Position numbers and translations under genes: made by a program
Part shown: in pieces, positions 39,611-61,475 of the stretch
Position numbering within the stretch: position 1 is the first letter of the stretch
Layout: every line of letters begins with the position of its first letter
Assembly (NCBI GenBank): GCA_012519315.1
Contig: JAAYQM010000058.1
Location: 3,062 to 67,061 of the forward strand
Direction: 5' to 3'
Source of the DNA: Clostridiales bacterium
GTDB lineage: Bacteria > Bacillota > Clostridia > Oscillospirales > CAG-272
Length of the DNA stretch: 64,000 nucleotides
The notes under the pieces: model-generated
What the model was told of the DNA's origin: nothing
Seen by the model: only the letters and a program-made list of their open reading frames with translations
Database searches by the model: none

Positions 39611-39782
39611 CCGTCAATATTTTTTACAAAATCTTATTATTATTATACAAACAAAGAGTACTATTGTCAACTTATACTTAGTATAAAAGCGCATTTGTTG
39701 CAGATATGTAAAAATAATAATTGCATATTTCATCAAAATATTTTATAATTAACTTATTAATTCTTTGGAAAGGAAGTTGAAT

Positions 39783-44701: not shown

Positions 44702-44775
44702 CGTGACGGTCGTGACGGTCGTGACGATATTTTTGTGTACGATATTGGTATCTAAATATCGTCACATCGTCACGG
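44700..44775. repeat. Palindromic GTGACG iteron unit, copy 1
   Basis: Three direct CGTGACG(G/A)T units, a spacer, then TATCGTCACATCGTCACG (inverted). Overlaps the repA-like stop codon. Confidence 0.8.
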
Positions 44776-44828
44776 GCATTTAGTAAAACAAAAAACAATT
44801 TACCAAGCCGATAAAGGGTAGAAAAGGC

Positions 44829-44856
44829 TTATCACAGCTGGATTGTCTGTTATAAT
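44829..44856 (+). promoter_or_regulatory. Candidate promoter between the two repeat copies (extended -10)
   Basis: TTATCA, a 16-nt spacer, then TGtTATAAT, pointing into repeat copy 2 and the terminator at 45003. Confidence 0.35.
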
Positions 44857-44908
44857 AGCACCTTTTTCCGTAATTAACTGCATATATTATACGCTCTTGA
44901 AAATGGGC

Positions 44909-44975
44909 AGCGTGACGGTCGTGACGATATTTTGTGTACGATACTGCTATCTAAAATATCGTCACATCGTCACGG
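44909..44975. repeat. Palindromic GTGACG iteron unit, copy 2
   Basis: Near-identical to copy 1 but with two direct CGTGACG units. Lies 134 nt after copy 1. Confidence 0.8.
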
Positions 44976-45566: not shown

Positions 45567-48110
45567 TCAGCCCAAAGTGTTGCCTGCATTCCAAGTGAAT
45601 ATATATTTACCTGAACCAAATTCATCGATAGTGCCATCGGGATAAACGAGAGTCACGGAAGTATTTGGAGGTATCATCACATTAAATACTACGCTGTCGC
45701 CTTCACTTTTCCACCCTGATTCAATACGCCCATACATTGAATCAACAGAGGCAAAAACATAGGACAAGTGCTTTGTCAAAATGGGCTTAATTAAAATTTT
45801 TTTGTATCCCGGTTCATCGGTCGAATAGTTTATACCGGCTATTTTTGTGTACATCCAGTCAGCGACAGCGCCATACGCATAATGATTGAACGAGTTCATG
45901 GTTTCACTCCATAATGTACCGTCTGACCTTATTCCGTCCCAATGCTCCCAAATTGTTGTCGCGCCCTGCTTTACTGAGAAAAGCCAAGAAGGATATTCCG
46001 TGCGCAAAAACAATGTGTATGCAAGCTCTTCATAGCCGTTGTCTGAAAGCGCATGAAGCAAATAAGGTGTACCAATAAAACCTGTTGTAAGGTGGTTGCC
46101 GGTTTTAATTATCATTTCTGCAAGCGCATCGGCAACAGCTTTCTTATTATCGGTTAGATTAAAAAACAGTGCAAGTGCACATGCTGTCTGCGTTTTTTGA
46201 TATGGCACACCGTCTTTATCCAAATATGTCTTTTTGAATCTATTTACAATTCCTTTGTTTAAGTGTGAGTATTCAGCACTCTCCCTCTGGTGACCTAGCA
46301 ATGCCGCAGCACGCGAAACCAAAGAAGTCGAGTGCGCATAGTAAGCATCCGCTATATAATTATCATCAGTGCTGCCCTTATTTGACCCGGGCGGCGAATC
46401 CAAGCCAAGCCAATCGCCGTAATGATAACCGCCTTCCCAATGGTATGGATTATCACCTTGCGCCTTTATATATTCAACCCATTGCTTCATACTGTCATAT
46501 TGCCGCGCAAGAAGCCGTTTATCCGCATATGCATGATAAATCTCAAATGGGCAGATTGTGGCTGCATCTCCCCAGCCTGCTGAGATTCGAGTCTTGGTAA
46601 TACCGGGCACAATGCCTGCAACTGCACCGCCAAGTTTCTTTTGATCAATAGCTAAATCCTTTAGCCATTTTGTGAAAAAGAGCGCTACATTCATATTCAT
46701 TGCTGCTGTTTTGATGAACACTTGGGCGTCTCCCGTCCATCCGAGCCGTTCATCTCGTTGCGGACAGTCAGTCGGAATATCGACATAGTTGCCTCTTTGG
46801 CCCCACAATATGTTTTGGTATAATCTATTTACATCGTCGTTAGAGCACTCAAAAGAACCGGTTGATTTTAGGCTTGAATATATAACCTTACCGAAAAAAT
46901 TATCAAGTTTTATTTCACCGGGATATTCGTCTATGCGTACATACCTAAAACCTTGAAACGTAAAATGAGGGTGGTAAAATTCTTCCCCCTTCCCGGATAG
47001 GATGTATTCTTCTTTGTTTTCGGCAGTTCTAAGATTGTCAGTATAAAAGTTCCCGTCTTTATCGAGTATTTCAGCGTGCGAGAGACACACCCTATCCCCC
47101 GGTTTTCCACAAACCTTGAAGGCTACCCAGCCGACCATGTTTTGACCGAAATCGATAACCGTTTCACCTTTCGGAGTTTTAACAATCGAAACCGGCTTTA
47201 TCTCATGCATTATTTTAACTGGTTCGTTTATTTGAGAATTTATATGCTTTTTAGGATAATCAAGTGAAATTGCGTTTTGCCAGGTTGAATCGTCAAAATC
47301 GAAATTCATTGATTCCTCTATTTTCTTTCGGGCATCGTAAGTTTCACCGTCATATATTTCGGATTTCAGAAATGCGCTTTCGTTATATTTCCAGCTTGTG
47401 TCACTTGGTACAAGTTGAATCTTACCATCAGGCATTTCGATTCTCAGCATCAAAAGGATGCCCGGCAAAGCATCAAATACATTGACACCACCTCGCCATC
47501 CCAGCCTACCCCTGCACCAACCTTTAGCTAAAGTAACCTCTATCGTATTTTCGCGCCGTAGCATATCTGTCACATCGTATGTTTGATATTGCAAATTTTC
47601 ATTGTACGATGTAAAGCCGGGGGTTAACCAATAATCCCCGACACGCTTACCGTTCAGCTCGATTTCATAAACCCCAAGTGCTGTTGCATAAATACGTGCA
47701 GATTTTACGGGCAATTCGCATTTAAATGTCTTCCTGAATACAGGGCAAACCTGAGTGTTACCTTCTGAAGTCGTTATCCAATCGGCGTTGAAGTTTTCGG
47801 GTATTTGTATTCCGGTTTCAAAGAATGCCCGGCTCCACTCTGATTCGTTGCCATCGCAATCCCAAATCCTTATGGAATAATCATATCTTGTAAAGGGCAA
47901 CAAGGGCTTGCCCCCGTATTGTATATGTATATTCTCGCCACTTTTGACAATACCGCTCTGCCACATACCGTCAACATTTATCTCGTAGGCAGATTGCTTG
48001 ACATTTTGAAGCGAGCTTTCAATTCTCCAACTAAAGCGTGGGTACAAATCATCCATTCCTAAAGGATTTTTTTTATATTCACATAACAAGTCCTTGCATT
48101 CAATCAGCAC
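45567..48110 (-). CDS. Alpha-L-rhamnosidase (GH78)
   Basis: Contains PRFSWRIES, GVYEIELNGKRVGD and DCPQRDERLGWTGDAQVF, with the (alpha/alpha)6 C-terminal pattern. The GTG start lacks a clear RBS, so the start is uncertain. Confidence 0.85.
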   Translation of the reverse strand: MLIECKDLLCEYKKNPLGMDDLYPRFSWRIESSLQNVKQSAYEINVDGMWQSGIVKSGENIHIQYGGKPLLPFTRYDYSIRIWDCDGNESEWSRAFFETGIQIPENFNADWITTSEGNTQVCPVFRKTFKCELPVKSARIYATALGVYEIELNGKRVGDYWLTPGFTSYNENLQYQTYDVTDMLRRENTIEVTLAKGWCRGRLGWRGGVNVFDALPGILLMLRIEMPDGKIQLVPSDTSWKYNESAFLKSEIYDGETYDARKKIEESMNFDFDDSTWQNAISLDYPKKHINSQINEPVKIMHEIKPVSIVKTPKGETVIDFGQNMVGWVAFKVCGKPGDRVCLSHAEILDKDGNFYTDNLRTAENKEEYILSGKGEEFYHPHFTFQGFRYVRIDEYPGEIKLDNFFGKVIYSSLKSTGSFECSNDDVNRLYQNILWGQRGNYVDIPTDCPQRDERLGWTGDAQVFIKTAAMNMNVALFFTKWLKDLAIDQKKLGGAVAGIVPGITKTRISAGWGDAATICPFEIYHAYADKRLLARQYDSMKQWVEYIKAQGDNPYHWEGGYHYGDWLGLDSPPGSNKGSTDDNYIADAYYAHSTSLVSRAAALLGHQRESAEYSHLNKGIVNRFKKTYLDKDGVPYQKTQTACALALFFNLTDNKKAVADALAEMIIKTGNHLTTGFIGTPYLLHALSDNGYEELAYTLFLRTEYPSWLFSVKQGATTIWEHWDGIRSDGTLWSETMNSFNHYAYGAVADWMYTKIAGINYSTDEPGYKKILIKPILTKHLSYVFASVDSMYGRIESGWKSEGDSVVFNVMIPPNTSVTLVYPDGTIDEFGSGKYIFTWNAGNTLG

Positions 48111-48568: not shown

Positions 48569-50641
48569 TTAAGAAGGCATATACGGTAATTTCATTGTAT
48601 ATGTCCCTTGGTGCGAAATAATCACAGCTTTAACGTTTTTACCCTCGACCAAAGACTTATTGATAGTATGATCCTTATATTCATCATAATGCTCAACCGA
48701 AGTTGGCCACAGACAAATAGTTGGGTCAATCAATCTATAAACTTGAGTGGTACCACCGGATATTATGCCGTGATGTGACATCTGTACTAAGTCGCTTTTT
48801 AGATAATCATCATACATCTCCGCCATTACACCATTGCCTTTTGGCATAATGTCTCCAAGCCACATATGACGCTGACCTTCAATATCAACGGTAAACACCG
48901 CCGTGCTGTCATTATAATACTCATAGTAGCTGGGGAATAAGTCTGCATATGTATACAAAAACTCTATTTTTGCATTTGCAATATTGAACACCTGACCTGC
49001 ATAGGGTTTGACTAATTGGTCATCGCGGAAAAATATTTTTATTATATCGTAAAATTTAGGAACAATATTATCACTCATATTAGAATCTACGATTCTTGTC
49101 GATTCTAGAGAGGGAAAATTGAAAATAACCTTTTCAACCTTTACATCTTGATTGTGTTTAGGCATGAAATCCATAAATACATTGATATGGTCGGGGTGAG
49201 CATGTGTGAATATCCATGCGGCAATAACTATTTTATCGCCTTGGGGTGTTTGTTCGGACAAGACCCTATAAAGCTCAGCCACCTCCTTACCGCCACCATC
49301 ACCGGGCCCTCCGTCTATCACTAAAAATCTGCCATCGCATAGTTTGTAAACTGCGGATAACCCGAGTGATTGCAGTTGCAACTGGGTAAGAGTGCTGTCA
49401 GTTGTTTTAGTGTATTGATTTTCTTCGGTAAGAAAATCAAAAGCCGATTTCCCGCCAGCAACAATTCGCACCGATTTCTGTTTGTCAATGTAATACACAT
49501 AAAGAGAAGAGTCGCTGTTCAAATATGCGGTATAGAGATTTTCGCCAATACTATTCTCATATACCTTTGTGTATCCTTTTTCTACAAGTGCGTCCTGGTA
49601 GGATATGAACTCAGTTTTGTTTGTGTTTCTAATAAGCCTCAGATATTGATTATCATTGCAATCGAATATCTTATCCTGCTCTCCGCCTTTGTATTCTGGG
49701 ATATCCGTTGTCCAACCTTCTATGCTGCCCACATCGTCAGCGTTTGGAATAATCAACATTGCCTCATTCTCCTTGTTGCGCGTCGCAAGTCTCTTTAGTT
49801 TTTCACAGAAAATGCCGACTGCCTTAGCGGTAAGTTCATCTCCCGTTCCGGCAATTACTACAACCCCATCCTTTATCTGAATGGCGTATTCATAATCTGC
49901 AAGTCCCTTTATCACGTTTTTGCTTTCGACGCGACCTGTTTCTCCGATTAGTATTTCGTTTTTTCTTTCTGTTTTTTGTGTTGCAGTGTCATATGTATAT
50001 TCAATATTAATCCCGGTTAAATCCCTTATCGTATTCAAAAGGGAAGCCAAGGCAGCCTCTATAATTGGGCTCGCCTTTTTGCTTATAATGATAATGCTGT
50101 TGCTTACTCCATTTTCCAGGATGCTGAAAGAGTTGCTTTCGTCGAAGACGATGTTTATTGAGGTTCCAAGCAATAAGAAAATGTTTTTGTTTTCCGATTT
50201 CATCTCCGAAACCAAACGCGCTACTGCTAGCTCAAGAAAATAATCGTTTGATGCAGCAATAATGACTTTGTTTTCAGTAACCTCGATAGAATACCCATAA
50301 ACGAGCTTTTCATAGGCGCTTTTTGATTCCTCTCGGTTGGTTTCGCCAACTAGAATCTCGTATGCAGACCTATCAATGTCCTCGACATTTTTCGCCCAGT
50401 CGTCAGATATCCCAATTGGGACACCTGACAAGCTATCAATAGCAGCTTTTAGATCAATTGCTGCCTTTATGCAGTTTTTTGATGCCTTAACGGGACGTAC
50501 TATGGTAAAAATCGCTGTTTCACCCTCTATAATATTTACGGGTGTGATAGGTGGGTCTGTCTCTTTACAGGATGGAAGCATAAAACTAAGCAATAACGAG
50601 ATTAGAAGAATACACGTGCTCGCTATTTTATTGATCCGCAT
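48569..50641 (-). CDS. Lipoprotein with duplicated N-terminal module and C-terminal MBL-fold metallo-hydrolase domain
   Basis: Lipobox MLPSCK, internal repeat ILVGETNREESK.../ILIGETGRVESK..., and HxHxDH in IAAWIFTHAHPDH (nt 49187-49207). Paralogous to the MBL region of 53648..57724. Confidence 0.6.
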   Translation of the reverse strand: MRINKIASTCILLISLLLSFMLPSCKETDPPITPVNIIEGETAIFTIVRPVKASKNCIKAAIDLKAAIDSLSGVPIGISDDWAKNVEDIDRSAYEILVGETNREESKSAYEKLVYGYSIEVTENKVIIAASNDYFLELAVARLVSEMKSENKNIFLLLGTSINIVFDESNSFSILENGVSNSIIIISKKASPIIEAALASLLNTIRDLTGINIEYTYDTATQKTERKNEILIGETGRVESKNVIKGLADYEYAIQIKDGVVVIAGTGDELTAKAVGIFCEKLKRLATRNKENEAMLIIPNADDVGSIEGWTTDIPEYKGGEQDKIFDCNDNQYLRLIRNTNKTEFISYQDALVEKGYTKVYENSIGENLYTAYLNSDSSLYVYYIDKQKSVRIVAGGKSAFDFLTEENQYTKTTDSTLTQLQLQSLGLSAVYKLCDGRFLVIDGGPGDGGGKEVAELYRVLSEQTPQGDKIVIAAWIFTHAHPDHINVFMDFMPKHNQDVKVEKVIFNFPSLESTRIVDSNMSDNIVPKFYDIIKIFFRDDQLVKPYAGQVFNIANAKIEFLYTYADLFPSYYEYYNDSTAVFTVDIEGQRHMWLGDIMPKGNGVMAEMYDDYLKSDLVQMSHHGIISGGTTQVYRLIDPTICLWPTSVEHYDEYKDHTINKSLVEGKNVKAVIISHQGTYTMKLPYMPS

Positions 50642-52088
50642 CTTTTAGTCCCTCTATTAATCTTCTGAGCATAGCTTCTGTCATAGGCTTAGCTGTTTGC
50701 CATGTCGAGGCCCAGTTGCGATCGTTATTTTGGAACTGATTGAAATACTTATCTGCAATGCCATTAAGCTGAACATGGAAGAGCCGTCCCAATTCGTATG
50801 TTATTGTGTCGCGCAAAAGGTCATACATCTGCGCGTCTTCATTAGCATCTGCGTACCTTGATTTAAAAGATACTTCAAACAAAGCAGGTGTTGTTGTCCT
50901 ATAAGCCTCGGACGCCATGCATTCAAGCACCGCCGCCGCCCGATGTGGATCATTCCCGTATGCGGATACAGAATATAAGGTATAGGGATTTGCAACCGAT
51001 GTTATGTAACCGCTCTGTTCCTCATCCCATTTAGGCAAGGGTAAAACACCATATTTTACCTCTGAGTCTGCCAGATGTTCTGTGGCAAGATATACGCGAT
51101 CTATGCAAAACAGGGATCTGCCAGCGGCAAATATCTCTTTATACACCATATCCTCATTACAATAAACATCTTTGCCTACATGTATCCAATCACATATCTT
51201 GTTAAGAAAATCCAAGGATTTTTCACCGTAAAATGAAGGGGAGATAGTAAGCCAATTTTCTTTATCAGGTTTAAGAACAGAAAGTTCGGAAGCATCAAAA
51301 AGCCCTTGTATATGCAATGCAAATGTTGTCATCCCATAACTGTCGCCCTGGTCCTTCTTGCCGTCGTTGTTCAAATCCTGGTATATACCGCGTGACATCT
51401 CAATCATTTTATCAAGTGTCCACTTATTGTCAGCAACAAGCTGATATGGATCATCAAGTTTGTAATCTTCTATCGTTTTCTTGTTAAAGAAAGCCGCAAC
51501 CATCATATATAAAATATTAGTAGAAATATCACCCGACGCAAAATATAATTTGCCGTCTATCGTGACATCATCCAGAAGTTTCTGCGACCACCAAGGTTTA
51601 TCAAAATTGAGATAGCGAAGATCCAGTAAATTTTCAGAAAACCCATTTATAGCGCAGGTAGCCGCGGTCCTTGAATATGCGGCATAAATATCATAATCTT
51701 TTGTACCCGCCTCAATGCTTTTTTTCGCTTTGTCAATAAATGTGTTTACATTAGTTGAATTGCCTTTGACACCTATGAATTCAAGCTCGACGTCTAGGCG
51801 GTTTTGAACATTATCATTTCGATAATATATAGCGTTTTCGACTTTATCACCGGTGAGGTCTTCAATAAAGAATTCTGGTTTCTGTACGTCTTCCCAGTAT
51901 AAAATTGTTACCTTCTCGCCATCGAATTTAAGGTCTTCCGGCAAGTCGTCATCAACGAATCTACCCGTTGTTTGCTCGTCGGTCTGGGATGAAGCCCCAG
52001 TTGTAGTTTTGTCATCACGTTCGGTGCAAGATACAAGTGCTATCGATAGCATAACGCAGACCAACAGTAATGAAATAATGCGTTTCAT
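50628..52088 (-). CDS. Lipoprotein, extracellular solute-binding-protein-like
   Basis: MKRIISLLLVCVMLSIALVSCT lipobox after RBS GAGAGGGAA. Family resemblance to 21293..22804. Its 14-nt 3' overlap with the next gene implies an operon. Confidence 0.55.
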   Translation of the reverse strand: MKRIISLLLVCVMLSIALVSCTERDDKTTTGASSQTDEQTTGRFVDDDLPEDLKFDGEKVTILYWEDVQKPEFFIEDLTGDKVENAIYYRNDNVQNRLDVELEFIGVKGNSTNVNTFIDKAKKSIEAGTKDYDIYAAYSRTAATCAINGFSENLLDLRYLNFDKPWWSQKLLDDVTIDGKLYFASGDISTNILYMMVAAFFNKKTIEDYKLDDPYQLVADNKWTLDKMIEMSRGIYQDLNNDGKKDQGDSYGMTTFALHIQGLFDASELSVLKPDKENWLTISPSFYGEKSLDFLNKICDWIHVGKDVYCNEDMVYKEIFAAGRSLFCIDRVYLATEHLADSEVKYGVLPLPKWDEEQSGYITSVANPYTLYSVSAYGNDPHRAAAVLECMASEAYRTTTPALFEVSFKSRYADANEDAQMYDLLRDTITYELGRLFHVQLNGIADKYFNQFQNNDRNWASTWQTAKPMTEAMLRRLIEGLKDADQ

Positions 52089-52167
52089 AGTATTCCCTCT
52101 CAAAAATAGTTGAAAATCGCATTTGCAAGGGAAAGCATATCCCTTGCCGATGCGTTCTCAAGTTAAT

Positions 52168-53448
52168 TTATGCTCTTCTTTTTTTGAAAATAGCAACTGA
52201 GGCAAGCGCCGCTAAGGTCAGTATAATAACGCCGAATACAACATCTCCTGTCGGAGGGGTCGTCGTTGTACCGCCACCCGTACTAGTAGTATTGGCCGGT
52301 GGGTCTGTTACAACCGGACTCTCACCCGATGCTGTCATGTATAACAACCCTTTCGGAACTGCATAACCATCAGCAACTGTTGCCCATTTGTTTGTAAAAT
52401 CAAGATCCGTCATGTTTGTTTTTGCCGCTTCACCCTTCATCTTAGCTGTGGCAAGACCGGTTGCACCAGAGCCTTCAATAACCGCGTTGGCATCATATGA
52501 GTTATGCGTTTTTTTAGTTGGTGTAGCATTATCAAAGTAGCACTTTTCAATTGTCATTTTAAAGCCTGTGCCACCAACTTTATACATACCAACAATATCT
52601 GCAAGAGATGTACCTGTAGCGTTGGTTGTGATAGAGCCTGCATTAACACAGTTCGTTATTGAGGTGCCATTACCGCCTTGGCGGCCAATGATTCCGCCCG
52701 CCTCGTCAGAAGCTGAGATTGCGCCGGTGTTAAGGCAATCCCTGATTGTCACTGATATGCTGTTTCCGTTGCCGAGAATTCCACCAACGTACTTTGACTT
52801 GCCGTCAACAGTGCCGTCAAACCAACAACCTTTGATTTCAGAGTTCTCCGCTCCTGGATTCAGTTTGCCGATTATACCGCCAACATGGAATCCGGGGTCG
52901 CCTGCTGTGCCGTCCATCCCATTGACAATAGCGTCAGAATAAACGTTTTCTACTGTTCCCGGTAGAGTTGTTATTTCAGCAACAACGCTCGCCACGGTGT
53001 TATTTCCAGCAAAAAACGAATTAACAATAGCGACATTTTTAATTGTTCCGCCGGTAACACGGGCGAATAGAGCTATATTATTCGATGTCAAGCTGCTGTT
53101 ATACAACCCGCTTATTGTATGGTTCTGTCCGTCAAAAGTGCCCATGAAGTTGGCTATCGGCACCCATTTGTTCGTCGGAGGCGTTGTTTTCCAAGTATCC
53201 GCACTTCCGGCGTTCATAACGATATCCGCACCGAGCTTAATTGTTTTTCCGTCAAAAATTTCGCCCCCTGCAGCAAGTTTTGAAAGTCCTGCAAGCTCCT
53301 GGGGAGTGCTAATGGTAAACTCGGTCTGAGCGGTGTTAAACCATGATGTATCTTCTGTGCCGTCCCAGACAGTTGCAGCGAAAGTGTTTACCGAGAGAAG
53401 GGAAAACAATAGTGTTGCTGCAATTAAAAATAATAGACTTTTCTTCAT
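52168..53448 (-). CDS. GLUG-motif beta-helix surface protein, signal peptide and C-terminal TM anchor
   Basis: Signal peptide ...VNTFAATVW, then DTSWF...FTISTPQELAGL...GKTIKLGADI...GTFDGQNHTISGLY, followed by repeated GG(I/L)(I/L)G turns. The C-terminal VIILTLAALASVAIFKKRRA is the anchor. Confidence 0.6.
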   Translation of the reverse strand: MKKSLLFLIAATLLFSLLSVNTFAATVWDGTEDTSWFNTAQTEFTISTPQELAGLSKLAAGGEIFDGKTIKLGADIVMNAGSADTWKTTPPTNKWVPIANFMGTFDGQNHTISGLYNSSLTSNNIALFARVTGGTIKNVAIVNSFFAGNNTVASVVAEITTLPGTVENVYSDAIVNGMDGTAGDPGFHVGGIIGKLNPGAENSEIKGCWFDGTVDGKSKYVGGILGNGNSISVTIRDCLNTGAISASDEAGGIIGRQGGNGTSITNCVNAGSITTNATGTSLADIVGMYKVGGTGFKMTIEKCYFDNATPTKKTHNSYDANAVIEGSGATGLATAKMKGEAAKTNMTDLDFTNKWATVADGYAVPKGLLYMTASGESPVVTDPPANTTSTGGGTTTTPPTGDVVFGVIILTLAALASVAIFKKRRA

Positions 53449-53508
53449 TTGCGTCTTCTCCTTATTAATAAATAAATTTTTAGTAGTGCTTTTTTTAAAT
53501 AGTTATCT

Positions 53509-53631
53509 TTATAAATATTTAACATCCAAGTCGAATCCATCGAGGCCATCGCTTGTTGTAATATTCGAAAGACTTCCGCCAGCGAAATATATAACCTGCA
53601 AATCTGGTTCTGTGTAATCTTTTTTCATCAT
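53509..53631 (-). CDS. Unannotated 40-aa ORF (MMKKDYTEPDLQVIYFAGGSLSNITTSDGLDGFDLDVKYL)
   Basis: AGGAGG lies 5 nt upstream of the ATG, which is 16 nt after the stop of the upstream gene. It fills an otherwise empty 199-nt intergenic gap in the operon. It is below the 60-aa cutoff of the ORF track. Confidence 0.4.
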   Translation of the reverse strand: MMKKDYTEPDLQVIYFAGGSLSNITTSDGLDGFDLDVKYL

Positions 53632-53647
53632 TCCGCCTCCTGATATT

Positions 53648-56600
53648 TTATGGTTGATATTCAGCTACGCCGAGAACATAATCATAATCTGCACCGCTGA
53701 GTCCATGATTTGGATCAGCCAAAATCTGAACGGCGACACCGTGAATATTTTTTGTTACCGGGTTGCCATAAATAACATAACTGTCTACACCGTTGCTCAT
53801 AAGTGCGTAGCTGACAAATACATAATCTTTATAATACAGTGATTCGTCGAATCCAATCAGAACAGCAGTGTACATAATATCACCGTCTTTGTTCTCGAAT
53901 ACAAGATTGACATTGTCCGCTTCACTATATGCAACGCTTTTGCCGACTCTATTTTGATATGTTCCGGTGAAGTATGAAAGAGGTGCCGGATTGTCAGCGG
54001 CTTTTACGAGCGTTCCGTATTCAACGGGGAAATATCCATCCGATCCGTTTGTTTTCAGATCTTCAGAAATCCTCGATTTGAAACGCAAACCCTGACCAAG
54101 CGATTCATTTGTACGAATTGACGCTCCAACATAACCCAAGATGTTCTTCATGTTTTGCATTTGCGTTGTATTATACCCTGAAGCTGTTTTCTTAACAAAA
54201 TATACAAAGTTGTTAAAATCATTTGTGGCAGCGTTCACTGTTTCAATAATCTGAACGGTAGTGTTTGCTCCATTGCCCGGCACGCTTACAATGAAACCGG
54301 TGTCTGTGAATTCAGTGGCGTCGGTCACGTCAACACCGTTAGCCAATATCCGTACATCAGATGTTTTGTTTATTCCTGTCGGATAGGCAAATGTCAAAAG
54401 TGAGTTTGCGGTATAAGGCAATACAAGTGTAGTTGTCTTATTTGCAACTATGTTTTCTTCTACATTAAGACTATTCCGAAGATAATTGTTCGTTGTGCTG
54501 GTGCTGATCTTGTCTACCGGCCATAGCAGCACTGATGGATTGACCTTGGCATACAATGTGCGTATCGAACTGAAATCCTGATACCCATGATGAGACACTT
54601 GACAAATATCGGCTTTGACGGCGTTAATATACATTGAGTTTATCAAAGGAACGCTGCCTTCTTCTGTGTCTCCGAGAAAAAGAATCTTCTGCTCATCCAC
54701 CTCAATGGTGAAAATTAAGCTGCTGTCATTAACAGTTATCATTGAACCGGGGAATAAATCCTCGTATGTAAACAAAATGTCGATCTTCGCATTGCGGAAG
54801 TATAGGCTTTGCCCCGTATGAGGCTTTATCACGCTAAGAGTCGAGTCGGCATTTAGTGCGCTTGTTACCGCCGCGTTAAAGCGAGGCAGCATGTCAGGGT
54901 TCGTCACCATAGGGTTGTCAAGCAGCCCTAAAACAGAGGAGTCAGGAAAGCTGTAAATCAGATTTTCTAATGTAACATTTGCGCTATATGAATCCATAAA
55001 ATTAGCGAAGGTGCCTGTATGATCCAAATGTGCATGCGTGAAAATCCAAGCAGCGATTACAATAGGATCGCCTCCGGATTGTGCTTGCAGGATGGAATAA
55101 AGCTCTACTTCGTCAATACCCTTCACATACCCGCCGTCAATGATAATAAAGCTTCCGTCGGCAAGCCTAATAACATATGACATGGCTGTTCCATCCGTTA
55201 CCATCTGAGTAAGCAAAGTTGTCTTTGAAGCAACATACTTGGTGTCAGGCAGCAATGCGGATAACTGGGAGGATTTCTCAATTATGATCCTTATGCTTTG
55301 ATTTGATGGGGTATAGTAAATGAAAATTGTCGAGCCGTCTTTTGTGTAAGTAGCAGATTTGTTGCCATCAATATCTTTATCTGCATACTTTACATATCCA
55401 AGACTCTGTAAGTTTGATACAGCGGTATTGTATTGTGCGGCCCCGGTATCCCCTATAACCATAAGATAGTCGCCGTTATCTTGCGACTCGGCATAGTTAA
55501 GACTGCCGCTTATACCATAAGGAATGTTGAGTGTTTTAAGCATATCCATCGGATGTTCAATTTTATCTGCCGAATAAACATAATTTTCGCGTGAAAGGGA
55601 TAAAAACTTTTGAAGTCTCGGGGTTTCGCCCGTAACCGTCGCCCATGTGTTAGTGAAATCCAGTGCGCTCATATTTGTAGATGCAGCAGCACCGGTCATC
55701 TGTGCCATACTTTTGGCATATATAGTACCTGCAAGAGACGAAGTGCCCTCTAAGCCAACAGGGGTGCATCCCAGAGGATAGTAAGAGCCAATTACGGTTA
55801 AAGTTCCACCGTTTTTATAGTCGCCGAAAAGAGAGTTTGCAAACTTGTTATCCGTTGAGGCAATCGGCCCTGTTGAATAGCAATTTGTGAGTGATGCGCT
55901 AAGACCGCCGCTTCGGCCCACTATTCCACCAACCTCGTCCAAGCCATATATTGCACCCGTGTTCATGCAATCGCTAACGGAAATAGCTTGCCCGTTTCCG
56001 TTTCCAATAATGCCGCCGACGTATTTGCTTGCCGACTTAACTGAGCCGTCAAACCAGCATTTGCTGATCTGCACGCCTGCAGAAGCACATACGCCGACTA
56101 ATCCGCCGGTTGACGCTCCCCCGGTGGGTAAGCCCTCTGAAACTTTTACATATGCGTCACTGTATATACCTGAAATTGTCGCAGGATTTGAAATTATTGC
56201 ACCGGCAAGTCCGCCGATATTGCTGTTCCCTGCAATAAGCGAGTTTTTAAAGACAATATCTTTAACAGTCGCGCCATTCAGTCTGCCGAAAAATCCGACA
56301 TAGCTTTTGGTGCTATTGTCATAATATAAACCACTTATTGTATGGCCCTTCCCGTCAAAAGTACCCTGGAAGCCCGGATCGCCAAAGGATATAGGTAACC
56401 AACCGTATGTCGGTGGATTATAAATCCAGTCAAGGTGATTGCCGGTATTCATTGTGATATCCGCACCGAGGTTTACAGTTTTACCCTGAAGGGGTCTGCC
56501 TATGGTAGTAATAACAGCAAGCCCTGACAGCTGCGCCATTGTATTTATTGTGTAAGTTGATTCACTTGCCTTATACCACGAGGTATCGGGCAATCCGCTC

Positions 56601-57724
56601 CATTGCGCCGTCTTCGCGCTTGGTGTTATGTCTGAAAAGATGCGCAACTGCGGCGTAGACCCGCTGACAGTCATCCAAACAGTGTCGAAGTTAAACGCTG
56701 TCATATTAGATGAAGCATTGTTGCCGGTCATCTGAGCAAGGGTTAAAGCCACAGGTGTGCCGACATATGTTGGGGTGCCTGAAGACTGATATGCCGCCGC
56801 TCCTCCGGATAAGTAATAGCAGCCAGATACAGTTAATGTATTACCGGCAAAGTTTCCTATTATCTCGGAGATATAGCCCGACGCGTCTACTCTGCCAAGT
56901 GTGGCTACGCTTGAATAAAAGTTTGTTATATTGGTGTTAGCGCCGTTACGACCGGCGAAGGCGCCCGCTTGATTGTCACCTATAACAGTGCCTGTGTTCA
57001 TGCAATTTGAAGAGCTAATGGGCGTATTATTCGCGTTTCCGACTAGTCCTCCGGCATAGCTGCCTTTCGAATATGCAAAGCCATCAAACCATGTGCTGTT
57101 GATAGTAATCTTGCCGCTGCTGCCACTACCGCCAAGACCGACTACTCCGCCAATACTTGTGCCGGTTCCCGTGATATAGGCGTTGGTGTATATATTCTCG
57201 TAGGTGCTGTCTCCCGTTGAATTTCCAACTATGCTACCGCTGTTGCTGCCTGCCGAAATGTACGAGTTTACAAGTCTTACATTTCGAATAACAGCATTCG
57301 ACGCTTCGCTGAATAATCCTTGGACACCTGCTCCGCTGTCAATATACAAACCGTTGATTGTGTGATTCTGCCCATCAAATGTTCCCGAGAATTTCTTAAT
57401 GGGAGTCCATTTGTTCGCTTTGCCGGTAACCATCCACTGTGTAAAGTTACCCTCGTTTAAGTATATATCTGCGCCAAGGCGGACAGTTTTGCCGGCGAAG
57501 GTCTTATCTTGCGCTGCAAGAGCAGAAAACCCAGCAAATTCTTCCGGTGTGTTGATTGTGAATTGCGTCCCGCTATCACTGTACCAGCTTGTGTCTATTC
57601 CTCCGCTCCACATGGGCTCTCCCAGTGCAGTGACCATAGAGATCGGGATATTAGCCACAACAATCAAAAGCATAAGTAACAGAGCAGTTTTTCTTTGCAA
57701 TTTTTCAGACCATTTCATTTTCAT
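53648..57724 (-). CDS. Large secreted multidomain protein: two tandem GLUG beta-helix modules, an MBL-fold domain and a C-terminal region
   Basis: Start chosen at MKMKWSEKLQRKTALLLMLLIV (RBS GAAAGGAAG). The ORF-track extension to 57970 runs into the IS remnant. Modules begin WSGGIDTSWY and WSGLPDTSWY. HxHxDH is in IAAWIFTHAHLDH (nt 55019-55039). Confidence 0.65.
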   Translation of the reverse strand: MKMKWSEKLQRKTALLLMLLIVVANIPISMVTALGEPMWSGGIDTSWYSDSGTQFTINTPEEFAGFSALAAQDKTFAGKTVRLGADIYLNEGNFTQWMVTGKANKWTPIKKFSGTFDGQNHTINGLYIDSGAGVQGLFSEASNAVIRNVRLVNSYISAGSNSGSIVGNSTGDSTYENIYTNAYITGTGTSIGGVVGLGGSGSSGKITINSTWFDGFAYSKGSYAGGLVGNANNTPISSSNCMNTGTVIGDNQAGAFAGRNGANTNITNFYSSVATLGRVDASGYISEIIGNFAGNTLTVSGCYYLSGGAAAYQSSGTPTYVGTPVALTLAQMTGNNASSNMTAFNFDTVWMTVSGSTPQLRIFSDITPSAKTAQWSGLPDTSWYKASESTYTINTMAQLSGLAVITTIGRPLQGKTVNLGADITMNTGNHLDWIYNPPTYGWLPISFGDPGFQGTFDGKGHTISGLYYDNSTKSYVGFFGRLNGATVKDIVFKNSLIAGNSNIGGLAGAIISNPATISGIYSDAYVKVSEGLPTGGASTGGLVGVCASAGVQISKCWFDGSVKSASKYVGGIIGNGNGQAISVSDCMNTGAIYGLDEVGGIVGRSGGLSASLTNCYSTGPIASTDNKFANSLFGDYKNGGTLTVIGSYYPLGCTPVGLEGTSSLAGTIYAKSMAQMTGAAASTNMSALDFTNTWATVTGETPRLQKFLSLSRENYVYSADKIEHPMDMLKTLNIPYGISGSLNYAESQDNGDYLMVIGDTGAAQYNTAVSNLQSLGYVKYADKDIDGNKSATYTKDGSTIFIYYTPSNQSIRIIIEKSSQLSALLPDTKYVASKTTLLTQMVTDGTAMSYVIRLADGSFIIIDGGYVKGIDEVELYSILQAQSGGDPIVIAAWIFTHAHLDHTGTFANFMDSYSANVTLENLIYSFPDSSVLGLLDNPMVTNPDMLPRFNAAVTSALNADSTLSVIKPHTGQSLYFRNAKIDILFTYEDLFPGSMITVNDSSLIFTIEVDEQKILFLGDTEEGSVPLINSMYINAVKADICQVSHHGYQDFSSIRTLYAKVNPSVLLWPVDKISTSTTNNYLRNSLNVEENIVANKTTTLVLPYTANSLLTFAYPTGINKTSDVRILANGVDVTDATEFTDTGFIVSVPGNGANTTVQIIETVNAATNDFNNFVYFVKKTASGYNTTQMQNMKNILGYVGASIRTNESLGQGLRFKSRISEDLKTNGSDGYFPVEYGTLVKAADNPAPLSYFTGTYQNRVGKSVAYSEADNVNLVFENKDGDIMYTAVLIGFDESLYYKDYVFVSYALMSNGVDSYVIYGNPVTKNIHGVAVQILADPNHGLSGADYDYVLGVAEYQP

Positions 57725-59060: not shown

Positions 59061-61475
59061 ATGAAAAAACTTCATTTGATTTGCAACGCACATATTGACC
59101 CGATCTGGCAATGGGGGTGGGACGAGGGTATCGCCGCCGCTATTGCTACCTTTGCCTCCGCCGTACGCCTTGCCGAGAAATTCGACTATGTTTTCTGCCA
59201 CAACGAATCGGTCCTATATCAATATATCGAGGAATACGCCCCTGAGTTGTTTGTGCAGATACAGAATCTTGTTCGTGAAGGAAAGTGGCATATCGCAGGT
59301 GGCTGGTTTCTTCAGCCTGATTGTAATATGCCTTCCGGAGAAAGTATCGCTCGTCAAATTTTAGTCGGGAAAGCATATTTCATGGAAAAGTTCGGCGTGT
59401 TCCCAACGACAGCAATAAATTACGATTCCTTTGGGCACAGCCGCGGTCTTGTTCAGATACTGAAAAAATGCGGACAAGACAGCTACATCATCACTCGTCC
59501 GTCTCCATCACAGTGCGCCTTGCCCAAAGATCGCTTTATCTGGAAGGGGTTTGACGGAAGCACGGTCAAGGTGTCCAGAGCATGCAGCTATAACACACCC
59601 TTAGGCAGAGCGGCTGAAATAATTATGAAGCGTGCAAAGCTGCAAAATGAAGAGAACGTCGGCATGTTGCTTTGGGGGGTGGGCAACCACGGCGGCGGTC
59701 CTTCCAGAAAGGATCTGTCGGATATTGAAGTCATTCAGAGCACGTCGCCATTTGAAATTTTGCACAGCACACCAGAAGATTTTTTCCAGGAATTTGATTC
59801 AAATGCAGAGCATGCATCCTCCCTTGTGCACTGTATGCCCGGATGCTATACTTCAATGATTAAAGTAAAGCAAAAGCATATAGAGCTTGAAAACCTATTG
59901 TATTATACCGAAAAATTATGCGTCTGCGCTTCTCTATCCGGACGCTCACCTTATCCGGCTAAGCGTTTGGCACTGGCGCAGGAAGACTTGCTCGTTAGCG
60001 AGTTTCACGATATTCTTCCGGGAACCTGCATAATGAGCGCGGAGGCAGCAGTACTTGATATGCTTGGGCACGGGCTGCACACTCTTCGTCAGGAATTCGA
60101 TAAGGCATTCTTTTCTCTTGTCGGATCCGAACATGTTGCCGATGAGGACGAATATCCTATATTTGTTTTTAATCCGCACCCATATCCGATATCGACTGAG
60201 GTCGAATGTGAGCTTACGCTGGCTGATCAGAACTGGGATCTGGAAGAATGGAATCAGGTGAAAGTTTACGATGGCAATCTCTTGCTGCCATCGCAAGTTG
60301 TGAAAGAGTCATCAACTATCCCTCTCGATTGGCGCAAGAAAGTCGTTTTTAAAGCGGATTTAAAGCCCTTTGGAATCTCGAGATTCTGCGCGCGCATGGT
60401 GAAAGAAAAGAAATATGTTGTGCGCCATGGTGTTGACGGCGATATAGTACTTCTCGGTGCGGATTGGGAAGTTATAATTGGCGGCAAAAGCGGGTTAATC
60501 GAAAAATATCGCGTCGGTGACCGCGTATATATGGGAAGCGGTGCTTTTATGCCTGTAATGTACGACGACAACGAGGATCCGTGGGCAATGTCAGATGCAC
60601 AGCTTAAGCGACTGGGCACAGATCCGCGCGACTTCAAGCTGATGGCGCCCACCGATGGTATCTTCGCAGGTCTTGACAGCGTTGAAATTATTGAGGACGG
60701 CGAGGTATATCTGGGCATCGAAAGCTTCTTCTCCCTTGATGAGACAAAAATTCGTATCGCATATAAGATCTACAAAGATAGCCCTTACATTGATATCAAT
60801 GTTAATGTTTTCTGGAACGAAAAAAACAAAATCCTCAAACTCAGATTACCCGTACAACATGAAGGCACGTTTATAGGTCAAACCTTGTACGGAACAGATA
60901 TTTTGCACACTGACGGACGTGAATGCGTAGCGCAACGATATTGCGGCATAGACGATGGCACAAACACTTTAGGTGTGCTCAACAACTGTATTTATGGCTG
61001 TAGTTTTGATGAGGGGAGCTTGTACCTGACATTGGTAAGGGGGGCATCCTACTGTGCTCATCCGATTCACGACAGGCAGATTCTCCCCTCGAAAAAGTTC
61101 GTTCACCTTATAGATCAGGGACAGCTTAATTACAGTTTTAGAGTGATTGCGTGCAAATCATACTAACTGGAAAAGAAAGCACTTGAATTCAATCAAAAAC
61201 CCTATGCCCTGAATCTGTTTCCGATTGGCACCGGAAACCTTTCGGCTCCCGTGCCGCTTATCGTTGAAAACGAAAACATTATCCTCTCGGCCGCAAAGAA
61301 GCGTGATGATGCCGACGGATATGTTTTTCGACTATTCAACGGGAGTTCCGGACGGGCAAAAACTCGCCTATCTCTCGGCGGGGTCAGCATCTCGCTCTCC
61401 TTTGAAAGCTTTGAGGTAAAAACCGTTTGCTATGATGACGGAGCTTTGATGGAAAAGGACGAATTGATTATTTAA
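59061..61475 (+). pseudogene. GH38 alpha-mannosidase interrupted by an in-frame TAA at 61164-61166
   Basis: N-terminal LICNAHIDPIWQWGWDEG and GVGNHGGGP. After the stop the same frame continues LEKKALEFNQKP...IILSAAKKRDDADGYVFRLFNGSS..., the typical GH38 C-terminal beta-sandwich end. Confidence 0.8.

Follow-up and report, generated by a model that had tools for sequence, protein, structure and literature searches.

Do the five tightly packed genes at positions 48569-57724 of the window (the whole 64,000-nt stretch of DNA analysed) encode an undescribed cell-surface system, as the earlier note on this sequence had proposed, and on what would its enzymes act? The genes are co-directional on the minus strand, in the order A, micro-ORF m, B, C and D, with gaps of 16, 60 and 79 nt and a 14-nt overlap between C and D. 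The cluster and its flanking glycosidase genes are as follows.

53648..57724, minus strand: gene A, a secreted protein of 1358 aa counted from its ATG (ORF list)
53509..53631, minus strand: micro-ORF m, which encodes 40 aa (MMKKDYTEPDLQVIYFAGGSLSNITTSDGLDGFDLDVKYL) and belongs to a conserved micro-protein family
52168..53448, minus strand: gene B, 426 aa (ORF list and alignment to A)
50628..52088, minus strand: gene C, a 486-aa lipoprotein with a carbohydrate-type family-1 solute-binding fold
48569..50641, minus strand: gene D, a 690-aa lipoprotein with two GH-type accessory domains, a pre-domain and an MBL domain
45567..48110, minus strand: GH78 alpha-L-rhamnosidase, in which Pfam recognises five rhamnosidase domains (best E 1e-116)
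59061..61166, plus strand: GH38 alpha-mannosidase (Pfam Glyco_hydro_38N, 38C and Alpha-mann_mid)

The overall anatomy of the cluster had been described correctly, and the number and direction of the genes, the gaps and the overlap were borne out exactly by the ORF list. The five genes are probably co-transcribed, as judged solely from their spacing and from a lack of strong terminators. Contig L006, from an independent metagenome, represents a second assembly of the locus; it encodes a protein identical to A, and an AraC regulator adjoins the cluster there. The GH78 gene, which lacks a signal peptide, is located 458 nt downstream of the cluster on the same strand and has a terminator-like hairpin on its 3' side (45346-45323). 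This enzyme recurs in 3 of 19 related SBP/GLUG loci and is likely a functional neighbour of the cluster. The GH38 gene is located upstream and is divergently transcribed, an arrangement repeated in L006. The cluster is thus flanked by GH78 and GH38 enzymes, contrary to the earlier statement that no enzyme with an obvious substrate was present. The accompanying statement that ABC permeases and ATPases are missing agrees with our survey, as none were found among the window ORFs scanned.

Protein A consists of a signal peptide, two GLUG beta-helix modules, an alpha/beta pre-domain, an MBL domain and a C-terminal tail. A second ATG at 57718, 6 nt downstream of the first, would yield 1356 aa and has a better Shine-Dalgarno spacing. 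The Pfam match of A to Lactamase_B (37.3 bits) was above the cut-off, while those to Glug and Peptidase_M26_N were below theirs. The modules and the tail were delimited as follows.

56630..57613, minus strand: GLUG beta-helix module 1 of A (aa 38-365), based on identity to module 2
55559..56608, minus strand: GLUG beta-helix module 2 of A (aa 373-722), based on identity to B
53651..54412, minus strand: C-terminal tail of A (aa 1105-1358), model pLDDT <50

The two modules share 38% identity over 339 aa (E 9e-60). Protein B aligns with A at 40% identity over 361 aa (module 2; E 4e-74) and at 35% over 367 aa (E 2e-58). The proposed paralogy of the GLUG modules in A and B is therefore far beyond chance (E 2e-58 to 4e-74). 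The profile built from 10 GLUG modules matched PDB entry 3N6Z, a 'putative IgA1 protease' (E 1.1e-19), and weak matches to Pfam Glug and Peptidase_M26_N and to ZmpC were obtained. A tail does follow the MBL domain of A, as noted earlier, with a length of ~254 aa rather than 330. It displayed no Pfam match, and its relatives in the fetched loci were confined to the same-species contig. No recognisable anchor was found in A.

Protein B was confirmed as the third GLUG copy with a signal peptide and a C-terminal transmembrane anchor. Its single module is followed by a Thr/Pro-rich linker and ends in TPPTG, a transmembrane helix and KKRRA. Since TPPTG, a hydrophobic helix and KKRRA are arranged like the three parts of a cell-wall sorting signal, the claim that the cluster carries no sortase signal is unsafe; a sortase gene is absent from the window. 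B also weakly matched the NCBIfam sorting domain GVDTG_CTERM (E 0.026, below cut-off). Comparable anchored single-module proteins are encoded in loci L021, L057 and L081.

Lipoprotein D carries the lipobox LPSC, and C carries LVSC; a Cys near position 21-23 is conserved throughout both families. The family of D comprised 2,744 representatives (50%-identity clusters, E <= 1e-30). The internal duplication reported for D was recovered, likewise far beyond chance, with 33% identity over 99 aa between residues 26-170 and 171-310 (E 6e-9).

49712..50566, minus strand: two accessory domains of D in tandem (aa 26-170 and aa 171-310), model pLDDT 90.2

Foldseek matched this module to domains found at the N-terminus of GH115, GH20, GH84 and GH67 enzymes (E 6e-7 to 3e-4). 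Pfam Glyco_hydro_67N gave a weak match (E 0.009), and the profile reached the N-domain of NagJ (E 0.007). The duplicated unit is an N-terminal accessory domain of glycoside-hydrolase type.

The Pfam score of C against SBP_bac_8 was 26.5 bits, compared with a cut-off of 27. Homologs of C numbered 745, some with PF01547 or PF13416 on record, and the family profile matched PDB structures of MalE and arabino-oligosaccharide SBPs (E 2e-5). C is a divergent carbohydrate-type SBP and an 'orphan', its cognate permease and ATPase being absent nearby. No BPD_transp genes were found beside C homologs. As no ABC permease or ATPase is encoded nearby, a role of C in uptake is hypothetical.

The MBL domain was present in both A and D, and the ~120 aa preceding it were also alignable, as had been stated (32% identity over 383 aa between A 731-1104 and D 311-687, E 2e-55).

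54413..55534, minus strand: pre-domain and MBL domain of A (aa 731-1104), AlphaFold pLDDT ~90
48572..49711, minus strand: pre-domain and MBL domain of D (aa 311-690), based on similarity to the unit in A

Both metal-binding motifs were detected, IAAWIFTHAHLDH at nt 55019-55057 and IAAWIFTHAHPDH at nt 49187-49225; the end coordinates given previously cover only the first 21 nt of each. The metal ligands of A include HxHxDH (HAHLDH), the motif-III Asn, a bridging Asp and HH. Those of D (HAHPDH, N577, D597 and H623/H624) occupy invariant alignment columns. All of these positions show no or almost no variation across 40-44 family members, A and D included. The best Foldseek match of the A model was Pce/CbpE (1WRA; E 9e-13, TM 0.67 on the target), followed by the MBL domain of ComEC (9IC4; E 4.7e-12, TM 0.72); nearly all further matches were phosphodiesterases or nucleases. 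The sequence profile of the family reached ComEC (E 1e-11) and CbpE (E 7e-9), at identities of only ~15-17%. The MBL domains of A and D thus belong to the Pce/ComEC phosphodiesterase-nuclease branch and retain all metal ligands. This placement narrows the range of substrates, which had been left open. Profile and structure searches gave known folds for all large parts of the proteins, so the modules are not new folds.

An extracellular nuclease, with the ComEC-like domain degrading environmental DNA or RNA for scavenging of nucleotides and phosphate or for biofilm remodelling, would agree with ComEC chains being the top sequence-profile match (E 1e-11), with TIGR00361 ComEC_Rec2 as the best NCBIfam match (E 2.8e-7, below cut-off) and with the presence of RNase J, RNase Z and CPSF73 among the structural matches. 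The ComEC domain has proven nuclease as well as phosphodiesterase activity, and among solved structures its nearest homologue is Pce (PMC8579336). We nevertheless consider this reading unlikely: the accessory domains are of glycosidase type, the partner SBP resembles carbohydrate rather than nucleoside or phosphate binders, and the neighbours are glycosidases and AraC regulators. Furthermore, neither an OB-fold nor any other module for DNA binding was detected, and Pce, which is not a nuclease, scores structurally at least as high as ComEC.

Linkage of the genes was surveyed in 77 MBL-anchored loci of other uncultured Clostridia, 19 of which were of the SBP/GLUG type. A C-type SBP was located directly beside an MBL gene in 13 of the 77 loci; GLUG proteins were encoded in 8, and all four parts occurred in 5. 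Fifteen of 22 C-type SBP genes adjoined an MBL gene, as compared to 9.1 ± 2.1 expected from within-locus shuffling; 24 of 5000 shuffles reached 15 adjacencies. The paired genes share the strand; of the 15 pairs first listed, 14 are separated by -4 to 61 nt and the other by 187 nt. The SBP gene precedes the MBL gene in 13 pairs and follows it in 4. Widely conserved are sub-modules only, namely the SBP-then-MBL pair and a GLUG protein with the micro-ORF next in order. In the related loci, genes for a permease or an ATPase were not found.

The neighbourhoods of the 19 SBP/GLUG-type loci were enriched in AraC regulators (11 of 92 neighbours), GH78 (3) and GH127 (3) as well as in GH2, GH16, GH43, GH31, GDPD and Exo_endo_phos. 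GLUG modules were fused not only to MBL domains, but also to GDPD (P0116) and Exo_endo_phos (P0159); the accessory module of D was fused to alkaline phosphatase (P0052-56). In locus L007, a GDPD gene immediately precedes that of the MBL protein. Sulfatases, lactonases, esterases and nucleases also occur among MBL-fold enzymes, and the hydrolase could be a sulfatase, carboxyl-esterase or lactonase stripping decorations from dietary or host glycans. The glycosidase-type N-domains, the GH-rich context and the GDSL esterases beside some relatives fit such an activity, and the MBL-fold arylsulfatase 8GYG was among the structural matches (Foldseek E 4e-7; E 0.014 by profile). It is made improbable by the closest relatives in both structure and sequence profile, which are phosphodiesterases or nucleases, and by the fusion partners of the modules, which are phosphoesterases (GDPD, Exo_endo_phos, alkaline phosphatase).

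In the remaining 58 loci, the MBL genes form stand-alone tandem arrays in housekeeping contexts, with no SBP, GH or AraC genes; the glycan context is therefore restricted to a subset of the MBL family. Arrays of 2-7 stand-alone lipoprotein paralogs in such contexts would suit a constitutive envelope function or surface variation. Together with the surface anchoring of the proteins and with Pce as the best structural match, they could point to enzymes that, like Pce, remove substituents held by phosphodiester links on the wall polymers of the cell itself, with GLUG proteins as adhesins and no role in feeding. For the present cluster this has a low probability: choline-binding or other wall-binding repeats are absent, and the subset to which it belongs, with AraC regulators, sugar-type SBPs and cytoplasmic glycosidases, is typical of inducible catabolic loci.

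Micro-ORF m is preceded by AGGAGG 5-8 nt upstream of its ATG. Members of its family occur in ~12 loci (HMM E 1e-21 to 1e-5), possess Shine-Dalgarno sites and share the pattern MKKxYxxP...D(I/V)(I/L)TxS, followed by a variable tail. All adjoin GLUG, SBP or MBL genes co-directionally. The family was present in 9 of 19 partner-containing loci versus 1 of 58 others (Fisher p 5e-6), and no Pfam or NCBIfam family matched m. The micro-ORF is a real conserved gene, and its micro-protein family had not been filed before. The mostly partnerless MBL family and the occurrence of the full set in only 5 of 77 loci might suggest that unrelated genes for surface proteins lie together by chance beside a spurious micro-ORF. 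This reading is contradicted, and made highly improbable, by SBP-MBL adjacency above that in the shuffles, by the consistent gene order with junctions that overlap or span a few nt, and by the enrichment and Shine-Dalgarno sites of the micro-ORF family. The chance adjacency that the earlier note had named as its own refutation fails, because the combination recurs in other genomes.

The conserved MKKxYxxPx(hydrophobic)...D(I/V)(I/L)TxS segment with its variable tail resembles the leader and core of a RiPP-type precursor, whose YxxP leader would be read by an RRE in a locus built to make or handle a peptide. Published leader motifs carry YxxP-type patterns, i.e. YxxPxVLxHQxIxFETxxS in LPP precursors of Bacillota and [Y/W]xxPx[L/V/I/F/A] in lasso leaders (PMC13381572). 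One family member weakly matched the NCBIfam lasso_cyano leader (E 0.017); the NCBIfam lasso model scored 15 bits against a cut-off of 33. This origin appears very unlikely. Neither the window nor the frequent neighbours displayed an RRE, lasso cyclase or peptidase, SipW-type peptidase, HprK-type kinase or MsbA-type exporter; Asp or Glu occupies core positions 7-9 in only 8 of 12 members, near chance for acidic tails; and the micro-ORF loci are tightly packed with exported proteins.

The reading that we tentatively favour, at a probability of about 0.4, is that an uncultured gut Clostridium uses the cluster as a surface capture-and-cleave module for phosphodiester-containing extracellular glycopolymers. 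Beyond the observed domain identities, export and anchoring signals, metal ligands and gene linkage, it includes phosphodiesterase chemistry, a glycopolymer substrate and functional coupling of C and D, all of which we infer. A and D would be two exported, surface-displayed binuclear-metal hydrolases of the Pce/ComEC branch, D lipid-anchored behind its two glycosidase-type accessory domains and A borne by a double GLUG beta-helix stalk. They would cut phosphodiester bonds of an extracellular polymer, most likely a glycopolymer such as teichoic-acid-like or phosphoglycan material of walls or capsules. The translationally coupled C may bind the substrate or a released oligosaccharide and then present it to the enzyme or hand it to an importer encoded elsewhere. 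B would serve as an anchored beta-helix partner, the cytoplasmic GH78 and GH38 enzymes could complete the breakdown, and m would be a genuine conserved fifth component. Surface location is suggested by the lipoboxes of C and D, their conserved Cys and the signal peptides of A and B; a link to glycans by the accessory domains of D, the SBP relatives of C and the AraC- and GH-rich neighbourhoods; and the phosphoester theme by the fusions to GDPD, Exo_endo_phos and alkaline phosphatase and by the GDPD gene in L007.

A limited literature search revealed no curated family or paper describing such a locus type, in line with the earlier failure to map the combination to a described system. The cluster is conserved and uncharacterised. 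Surrounded by glycoside hydrolases and, in the second assembly, adjoined by an AraC regulator, it looks more like a Gram-positive nutrient-acquisition locus than a free-standing new 'cell-surface system'.

[quoted passage not shown] Its HxHxDH, N-x-S, GD and HH motifs align with the MBL domains of A and D, at ~16% identity. Choline-binding repeats target Pce, whereas GH-type domains or GLUG helices take this place here, and Pce has no 120-aa pre-domain, SBP partner or micro-ORF. Its substrate, phosphorylcholine on the cell's own teichoic acid, is not implied for A and D. The C-terminal MBL nuclease domain of ComEC (9IC4, 9VC6), the best sequence-profile relative and second-best structural match, is also extracytoplasmic and has the motif-III Asn. 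ComEC is, however, a DNA-uptake channel that spans the membrane as a polytopic protein, and its OB-fold and competence domains are missing from A and D, which are soluble lipoprotein or secreted proteins; ComEC_Rec2 of NCBIfam scored 29 bits against a cut-off of 190.

The GLUG modules share their repeat fold with 3N6Z and with the GLUG/beta-helix segment at the N-terminus of M26 zinc metalloproteases (IgA1 protease, ZmpB/C). The catalytic domain of these proteases is absent here; in A the helix bears an MBL domain, in B an anchor alone. The module of D has the fold of the Glyco_hydro_20b/67N-type accessory domains of GH20, GH67, GH84 and GH115 enzymes; in those, a TIM-barrel glycosidase follows, whereas in D tandem copies precede the MBL domain. 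Lasso and LPP leaders have in common with the micro-proteins a small precursor-sized ORF, a [Y/W]xxPx[hydrophobic] motif at the N-terminus, another conserved motif with T/S ~10 residues further on and a hypervariable C-terminus. The motif spacing of the LPP consensus differs by one residue, and the RRE, cyclase, peptidase, kinase and exporter genes of these systems were not found near micro-protein genes. Gram-positive glycan-utilisation loci with ABC importers share with this locus a lipoprotein SBP of the carbohydrate class, surface enzymes, cytoplasmic GHs and a regulator, which is of AraC or LacI type in such loci and of AraC type on L006. They also contain permease and ATPase genes, absent from the window and the related loci, and where they encode a surface GH or lyase, the locus described here encodes an MBL hydrolase and a conserved micro-protein.

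The cluster consists of five genes read in the order A, micro-ORF, B, C and D.

Genes of the cluster and their neighbours (window coordinates for the cluster genes from the ORF list)
upstream of the cluster: genes for a GH38 protein and an ADP-ribosylglycohydrolase
53648-57724, minus strand: A, secreted protein with two GLUG modules, a pre-domain, a metallo-beta-lactamase (MBL) fold domain and a 254-aa tail
53509-53631, minus strand: micro-ORF (m), 40 aa
52168-53448, minus strand: B, anchored 426-aa protein with a single GLUG module
50628-52088, minus strand: C, lipoprotein of the solute-binding protein (SBP) type
48569-50641, minus strand: D, 690-aa MBL lipoprotein
downstream of the cluster: GH78 gene

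The intergenic distances of 16, 60 and 79 nt and the 14-nt overlap of C and D agree with the packing described in the earlier note, whose observation was confirmed as a whole with regard to gene layout, spacing and paralogy. Signal peptides (A and B) and lipoboxes (C and D) were recognized by sequence reading. An independent metagenome contig of the same species, L006, carries an identical A together with the micro-ORF, B and the start of C in unchanged order; an AraC gene is located further out on this contig. Each cluster gene possesses its own Shine-Dalgarno sequence, the best being AGGAGG of the micro-ORF. A strong terminator-like site was absent within the cluster and present after the downstream GH78 gene, while Rfam and tRNA scans of the locus revealed no RNA element.

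The two GLUG modules of A share 38% identity (E 9e-60) in pairwise BLAST comparison, and B represents a third copy with identities of 40% (E 4e-74) and 35% (E 2e-58) to A. The MBL unit occurs twice (A 731-1104 versus D 311-687; 32% over 383 aa, E 2e-55), and the N-terminus of D is itself duplicated, with 33% identity between its halves over 99 aa (E 6e-9). Judged from these alignments, paralogy among the cluster modules far exceeds chance.

The MBL domain of A scored 37.3 bits with Pfam PF00753 (cut-off 22.7), while that of D alone remained slightly under the cut-off with 20.5 bits and was counted as a member of the superfamily because of its 32% identity to A across the whole domain and the PF00753 records of its relatives. 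The HxHxDH motif is located at nt 55019-55057 in A and 49187-49225 in D. Across 40 sequences, residues H480, H482, D484, H485, N577, D597, H623 and H624 (numbered as in D) are either invariant or conserved to at least 90%. Protein A shows conservation of these metal-ligand columns as well, and HxHxDH, the Asn, the bridging Asp and HH are also found in about 40 relatives. The shared 380-aa unit, composed of an alpha/beta pre-domain and the MBL domain, was modelled at pLDDT ~90. Foldseek placed Pce/CbpE, the pneumococcal phosphorylcholine esterase for teichoic acid (E 9e-13), and the MBL domain of the DNA-uptake channel ComEC (E 4.7e-12) together at ranks 1-4, followed by many phosphodiesterases and nucleases. 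With the family profile, ComEC (E 1e-11) and CbpE (E 7e-9) occupied ranks 1-9 among PDB sequences; single-sequence PDB searches with A, C and D gave nothing useful, so that profile searches were needed. Among solved homologues of the ComEC domain, Pce is the closest; the domain itself has Asn at motif III and acts as a phosphodiesterase and nuclease that depends on metal (PMC8579336). By profile and model, the MBL domains of A and D thus fall into the Pce/ComEC phosphodiesterase-nuclease branch, and their activity is predicted accordingly. The earlier note had left the substrate open between glycan ester, nucleic acid or other; this choice can now be narrowed to the probable chemistry of that branch.

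Tyr in D, where the family consensus reads KAHxGQ, raised the possibility of a degenerate enzyme. This was rejected since the His concerned is not a ligand position in the CbpE alignment and D keeps the invariant motif III Asn, as in ComEC. Assignment of A and D to ComEC/Rec2 proper (TIGR00361) was also rejected: the score of 29.1 bits stayed below the cut-off (190), and the alignment covered the MBL part only. Neither protein contains a channel domain; each has a single N-terminal signal or lipoprotein signal. The pre-domain and A's tail gave no significant match to Pfam and NCBIfam, and the 254-aa tail was modelled at pLDDT <50.

The duplicated module of D, modelled at pLDDT 90, resembled the N-terminal accessory domains of GH115, GH20, GH84 and GH67 enzymes in Foldseek searches (E 6e-7 to 3e-4). 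Its PDB matches with E <= 0.001 numbered 72, and every one of the 50 listed was a glycosidase of family GH20, GH67, GH84 or GH115. A weak Pfam GH67N match and a profile match to the NagJ N-domain are consistent with this result, and the module is predicted to be an accessory domain of the GH20b/GH67N type. The ComEC relationship and the nucleases among the structural matches would accommodate an extracellular nuclease; next to these glycosidase-type domains, we regard such a function as unlikely. The same module is also fused to an alkaline-phosphatase/metalloenzyme domain in ~640-aa proteins of related bacteria (P0052-P0056; L092, 8001-9929). As a context clue these fusions were discarded, the P0052 locus being of housekeeping character and uninformative.

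Lipoprotein C was borderline with SBP_bac_8 (26.5 bits, cut-off 27). Some of its 745 homologs are annotated with PF01547 or PF13416, and the family profile matched MalE and an arabino-oligosaccharide SBP in the PDB (E 2e-5). These profile matches indicate that C is probably a divergent carbohydrate-type (family-1) SBP. A complete ABC importer was considered and rejected: no permease (BPD_transp_1) or ATPase was found among the scanned window ORFs or beside C-family homologs, and no ABC permease occurs among the frequent neighbour families of 19 loci with SBP or GLUG genes. The independently anchored SBPs of the C family are 'orphans' with no permease nearby, often paired, and adjoin phosphoesterases and esterases. 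That an SBP is translationally coupled to an MBL protein with no transporter beside them hints at a role of the binding protein beyond import. The adjoining esterases would be in keeping with a glycan sulfatase or esterase, a reading that we consider improbable beside the phosphodiesterase assignment of the MBL domains. A second 'orphan' SBP-like lipoprotein of 503 aa is encoded at 21293-22804 (minus strand). It shares 23% identity with C (tblastn E 5e-21), has no Pfam match, adjoins a PBP5-type D-Ala-D-Ala carboxypeptidase and is distant from any permease gene.

The profile of 10 GLUG modules matched the solved beta-helix 3N6Z ('putative IgA1 protease') with E 1.1e-19 over 273 profile positions, while a single Pfam Glug repeat (PF07581) reached 18.1 bits against a cut-off of 20.5. 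On the strength of the profile match, the modules appear homologous to this GLUG-containing beta-helix. They were not assigned to the IgA1-specific M26 metalloproteases, for which only the model of the N-terminal region matched (21.6, cut-off 27.7) and Peptidase_M26_C did not. More than 800 homologs were found, mostly multi-module proteins of ~2000 aa from Oscillospiraceae and Lachnospiraceae. Their C-terminal cargo varies (MBL, GDPD, Exo_endo_phos, heparinase, dockerin), which suggests that the GLUG module acts as a general display or binding stalk.

As regards possible sortase anchoring through an LPXTG-type signal, protein B ends with TPPTG-DVVFGVIILTLAALASVAIF-KKRRA, that is, TPPTG, a hydrophobic helix and KKRRA. 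No TLxTC sortase signature was present in any window ORF. B-like single-module proteins in other loci (L021, 8463-9980; L057, 8367-9860; L081, 3622-5406) differ from B in having G-(G/S)-C-x(2-4) in place of TPPTG before the transmembrane helix and KKK/KKRR. This Cys-containing three-part C-terminus may represent a so far unrecognised sorting signal.

The D-type family comprises 2,744 representatives of 50%-identity clusters at E <= 1e-30. At least 557 relatives were found among GTDB species representatives, all of them uncultured Clostridia from the guts of ruminants, humans and other hosts, with identity to D never exceeding 33% in the best aligned segment. The only annotation of these exported lipoproteins is 'MBL fold metallo-hydrolase'. 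Linkage was analysed in 77 retrieved MBL-anchored loci, in which ORFs were called and searched with the domains of the window. Two or more tandem MBL paralogs were present in 35 of these loci, with arrays of up to 6-7 copies. One-strand D-type arrays of this maximal size (L020, L023, L031, L033, L071 and L089, from several MAGs) are located in housekeeping neighbourhoods; their expansion may reflect diversification of substrates or variation of the surface. A C-type SBP occurred in 18 of the 77 loci and directly adjoined an MBL gene in 13. GLUG proteins were detected in eight loci by direct search, and several more large neighbours listed as 'unknown' are divergent GLUG proteins. All four component types occur together in L022, L042, L057, L068 and L082.

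Of 22 SBP genes, 15 lie immediately next to an MBL gene, compared with 9.1 ± 2.1 in within-locus shuffles; 15 was reached in 24 of 5000 shuffles. Both genes of a pair run in one direction, and the junction measures -4 to 61 nt in all but one of the 15 first-listed pairs, the exception being 187 nt. The SBP gene lies upstream in 13 cases, as in the window, where C overlaps D, and downstream in four. Chance adjacency, which the earlier note had named as the outcome that would overturn its idea, is contradicted by these data, since the gene combination recurs elsewhere and adjacency exceeds that in the shuffles.

The neighbours of the 19 SBP/GLUG loci are enriched in AraC regulators (11/92), GH78 (3), GH127 (3), sugar-isomerase-like TIM barrels, GH2, GH16, GH43, GH31, GDPD and Exo_endo_phos, while those of MBL-only arrays are heterogeneous housekeeping genes. 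The window locus falls in the SBP/GLUG, catabolic-looking subset. Remodelling of the cell's own wall might suit exported hydrolases in housekeeping surroundings; for a locus of the catabolic-looking subset we give it little credence. A different architecture was observed in L007 (9172-16792): the MBL unit of P0017 (1177 aa) is flanked on both sides by regions with no Pfam match, not by GLUG modules. A GDPD gene precedes P0017, and a 61-aa micro-ORF of the family described below and a 984-aa GDSL-esterase protein follow.

We infer that the locus encodes a surface capture-and-cleave module for a phosphodiester-containing glycopolymer, and assign this reading, which includes both chemistry and substrate, a probability of about 0.4. 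Lipid-anchored D and stalk-borne A would act as binuclear-metal phosphodiesterases of the Pce/ComEC type, C as a binding lipoprotein of the carbohydrate type in stoichiometric coupling with D, and B as an anchored beta-helix partner; cytoplasmic glycosidases would finish catabolism. Such a substrate is the most economical one because it reconciles the phosphodiesterase branch of the MBL domains with glycosidase-type accessory domains and a sugar-type SBP. It is also in line with the GH and AraC context and with the repeated fusion or adjacency of cluster modules to GDPD, Exo_endo_phos and alkaline phosphatase.

The micro-ORF belongs to a family of small ORFs that are squeezed in, co-directionally, next to GLUG, SBP or MBL genes. 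Their consensus begins with MKKxYxxP and a hydrophobic stretch, continues with D(I/V)(I/L)TxS and ends in a variable tail, 15-35 residues long, in which Asp, Gly and Trp are abundant. Members were identified in the window (and L006), L007, L021, L036, L042, L046, L054, L057, L068, L082 and L086, L022 being marginal. Eight members were used to build an HMM, which recovered three more (E 1e-5 to 8e-5); six-frame translation of 1.46 Mb gave nothing further below E 0.01. AAGGAG-type ribosome-binding sites precede nearly all members by 6-10 nt. Of the 19 SBP/GLUG loci, 9 contain the family, compared with 1 of the 58 loci with MBL genes alone (Fisher p 5e-6). In most cases the micro-ORF immediately follows the gene of a large secreted protein of the GLUG type and precedes an SBP, MBL or second GLUG gene. 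The micro-ORFs matched no Pfam or NCBIfam model, apart from a weak similarity of one member to the NCBIfam lasso_cyano leader (E 0.017; 15 bits, cut-off 33).

Most members contain a [Y/W]xxP motif. RiPP recognition elements (RREs) read leaders of the form [Y/W]xxPx[L/V/I/F/A], and the linear polyphosphorylated peptides (LPPs) recently described in Bacillota have the leader YxxPxVLxHQxIxFETxxS (PMC13381572). The N-terminal motif of the micro-proteins resembles both. Lasso or LPP core genes comprise an RRE with B/C, or SpI, HprK kinase, NTP transferase and MsbA (PMC13381572), and none of these was found in the window or among frequent neighbours; the likeness is therefore one of resemblance and not of membership. 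A lasso peptide was rejected for lack of B, C and RRE genes in these surroundings; moreover, Asp/Glu at core positions 7-9 in 8 of 12 members is close to chance level for acidic tails. A more far-reaching proposal, to which we accord a low probability, is that m forms the core of a new four-component Gram-positive surface system, being either a trans-processed YxxP-leader peptide or a strand-donating partner of the GLUG beta-helix encoded upstream, coupled to the transporter-less pair of orphan SBP and MBL phosphodiesterase. If true, a four-component module would have gone unrecognised in an MBL family of which uncultured gut Clostridia carry thousands of members. The micro-protein family is an example of conserved small genes that escape annotation.

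Several features were recorded in the remainder of the window. Directly after guaA (39765-41648), genes for a tyrosine integrase (42239-43315) and a RepA/DnaB-like AAA_25 ATPase (43616-44701) are followed by iteron-like direct repeats at 44702-44975, consisting of CGTGACGGTCGTGACG blocks and a ~75-nt unit repeated at 200-nt spacing. The region 42239-44975 looks like a small integrated mobile element. The G+C content falls to 38-43% across ~46-56 kb. In a check of the island hypothesis, no flanking direct repeats were detected around the cluster. Between the start of A and the GH38 gene, a 73-aa fragment of an IS3-type transposase OrfA is encoded (57906-58127, plus strand). It is also present in L006, where HTH_Tnp_1 is on record for the identical ORF. 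The GH38 alpha-mannosidase is a single 701-aa ORF in the window (59061-61166) versus two genes (302 and 374 aa) on L006 (3578-5683), which suggests that one of these versions contains a frameshift or was misassembled. A protein of 295 aa with a Lamin Tail Domain (LTD, E 3e-10) is encoded at 38723-39610 (minus strand) between guaA and a trigger-factor-like gene (37553-38659; Trigger_C and FKBP_C). An ordinary glmS ribozyme/riboswitch (31995-32187, plus strand; 72 bits) lies upstream of glmS (32359-33654), and a tRNA scan detected no tRNA genes in the 64 kb.

Glycan feeding by gut Firmicutes is at present described mainly in terms of glycoside hydrolases, lyases and esterases. If confirmed, phosphodiesterases that act at the surface to open glycopolymers with phosphodiester links (bacterial wall polymers, phosphomannans, capsules) would add an enzyme class to this picture. 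A literature survey on MBL-fold enzymes in glycan loci and on teichoic-acid scavenging in the gut found no description of this cluster. The interpretation in the earlier note holds insofar as the cluster is conserved and uncharacterised; it requires revision in that the cluster is built of known folds, lies in a glycan-catabolic context and permits its probable chemistry to be narrowed. Tests of the defining features separate the locus from ComEC systems, M26 proteases, complete ABC importers and lasso/LPP clusters, and all its large components belong to known fold families. Within the limits of curated libraries and the literature search, three features appear to be undescribed: an SBP-like orphan lipoprotein is paired in a conserved way with an exported MBL hydrolase of the Pce/ComEC type, this hydrolase has recruited GH-type N-domains and GLUG stalks, and a micro-protein family is associated with them. 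We classify the locus as one of the Gram-positive surface nutrient-acquisition type, marked by an unusual class of enzyme and a puzzling small component.
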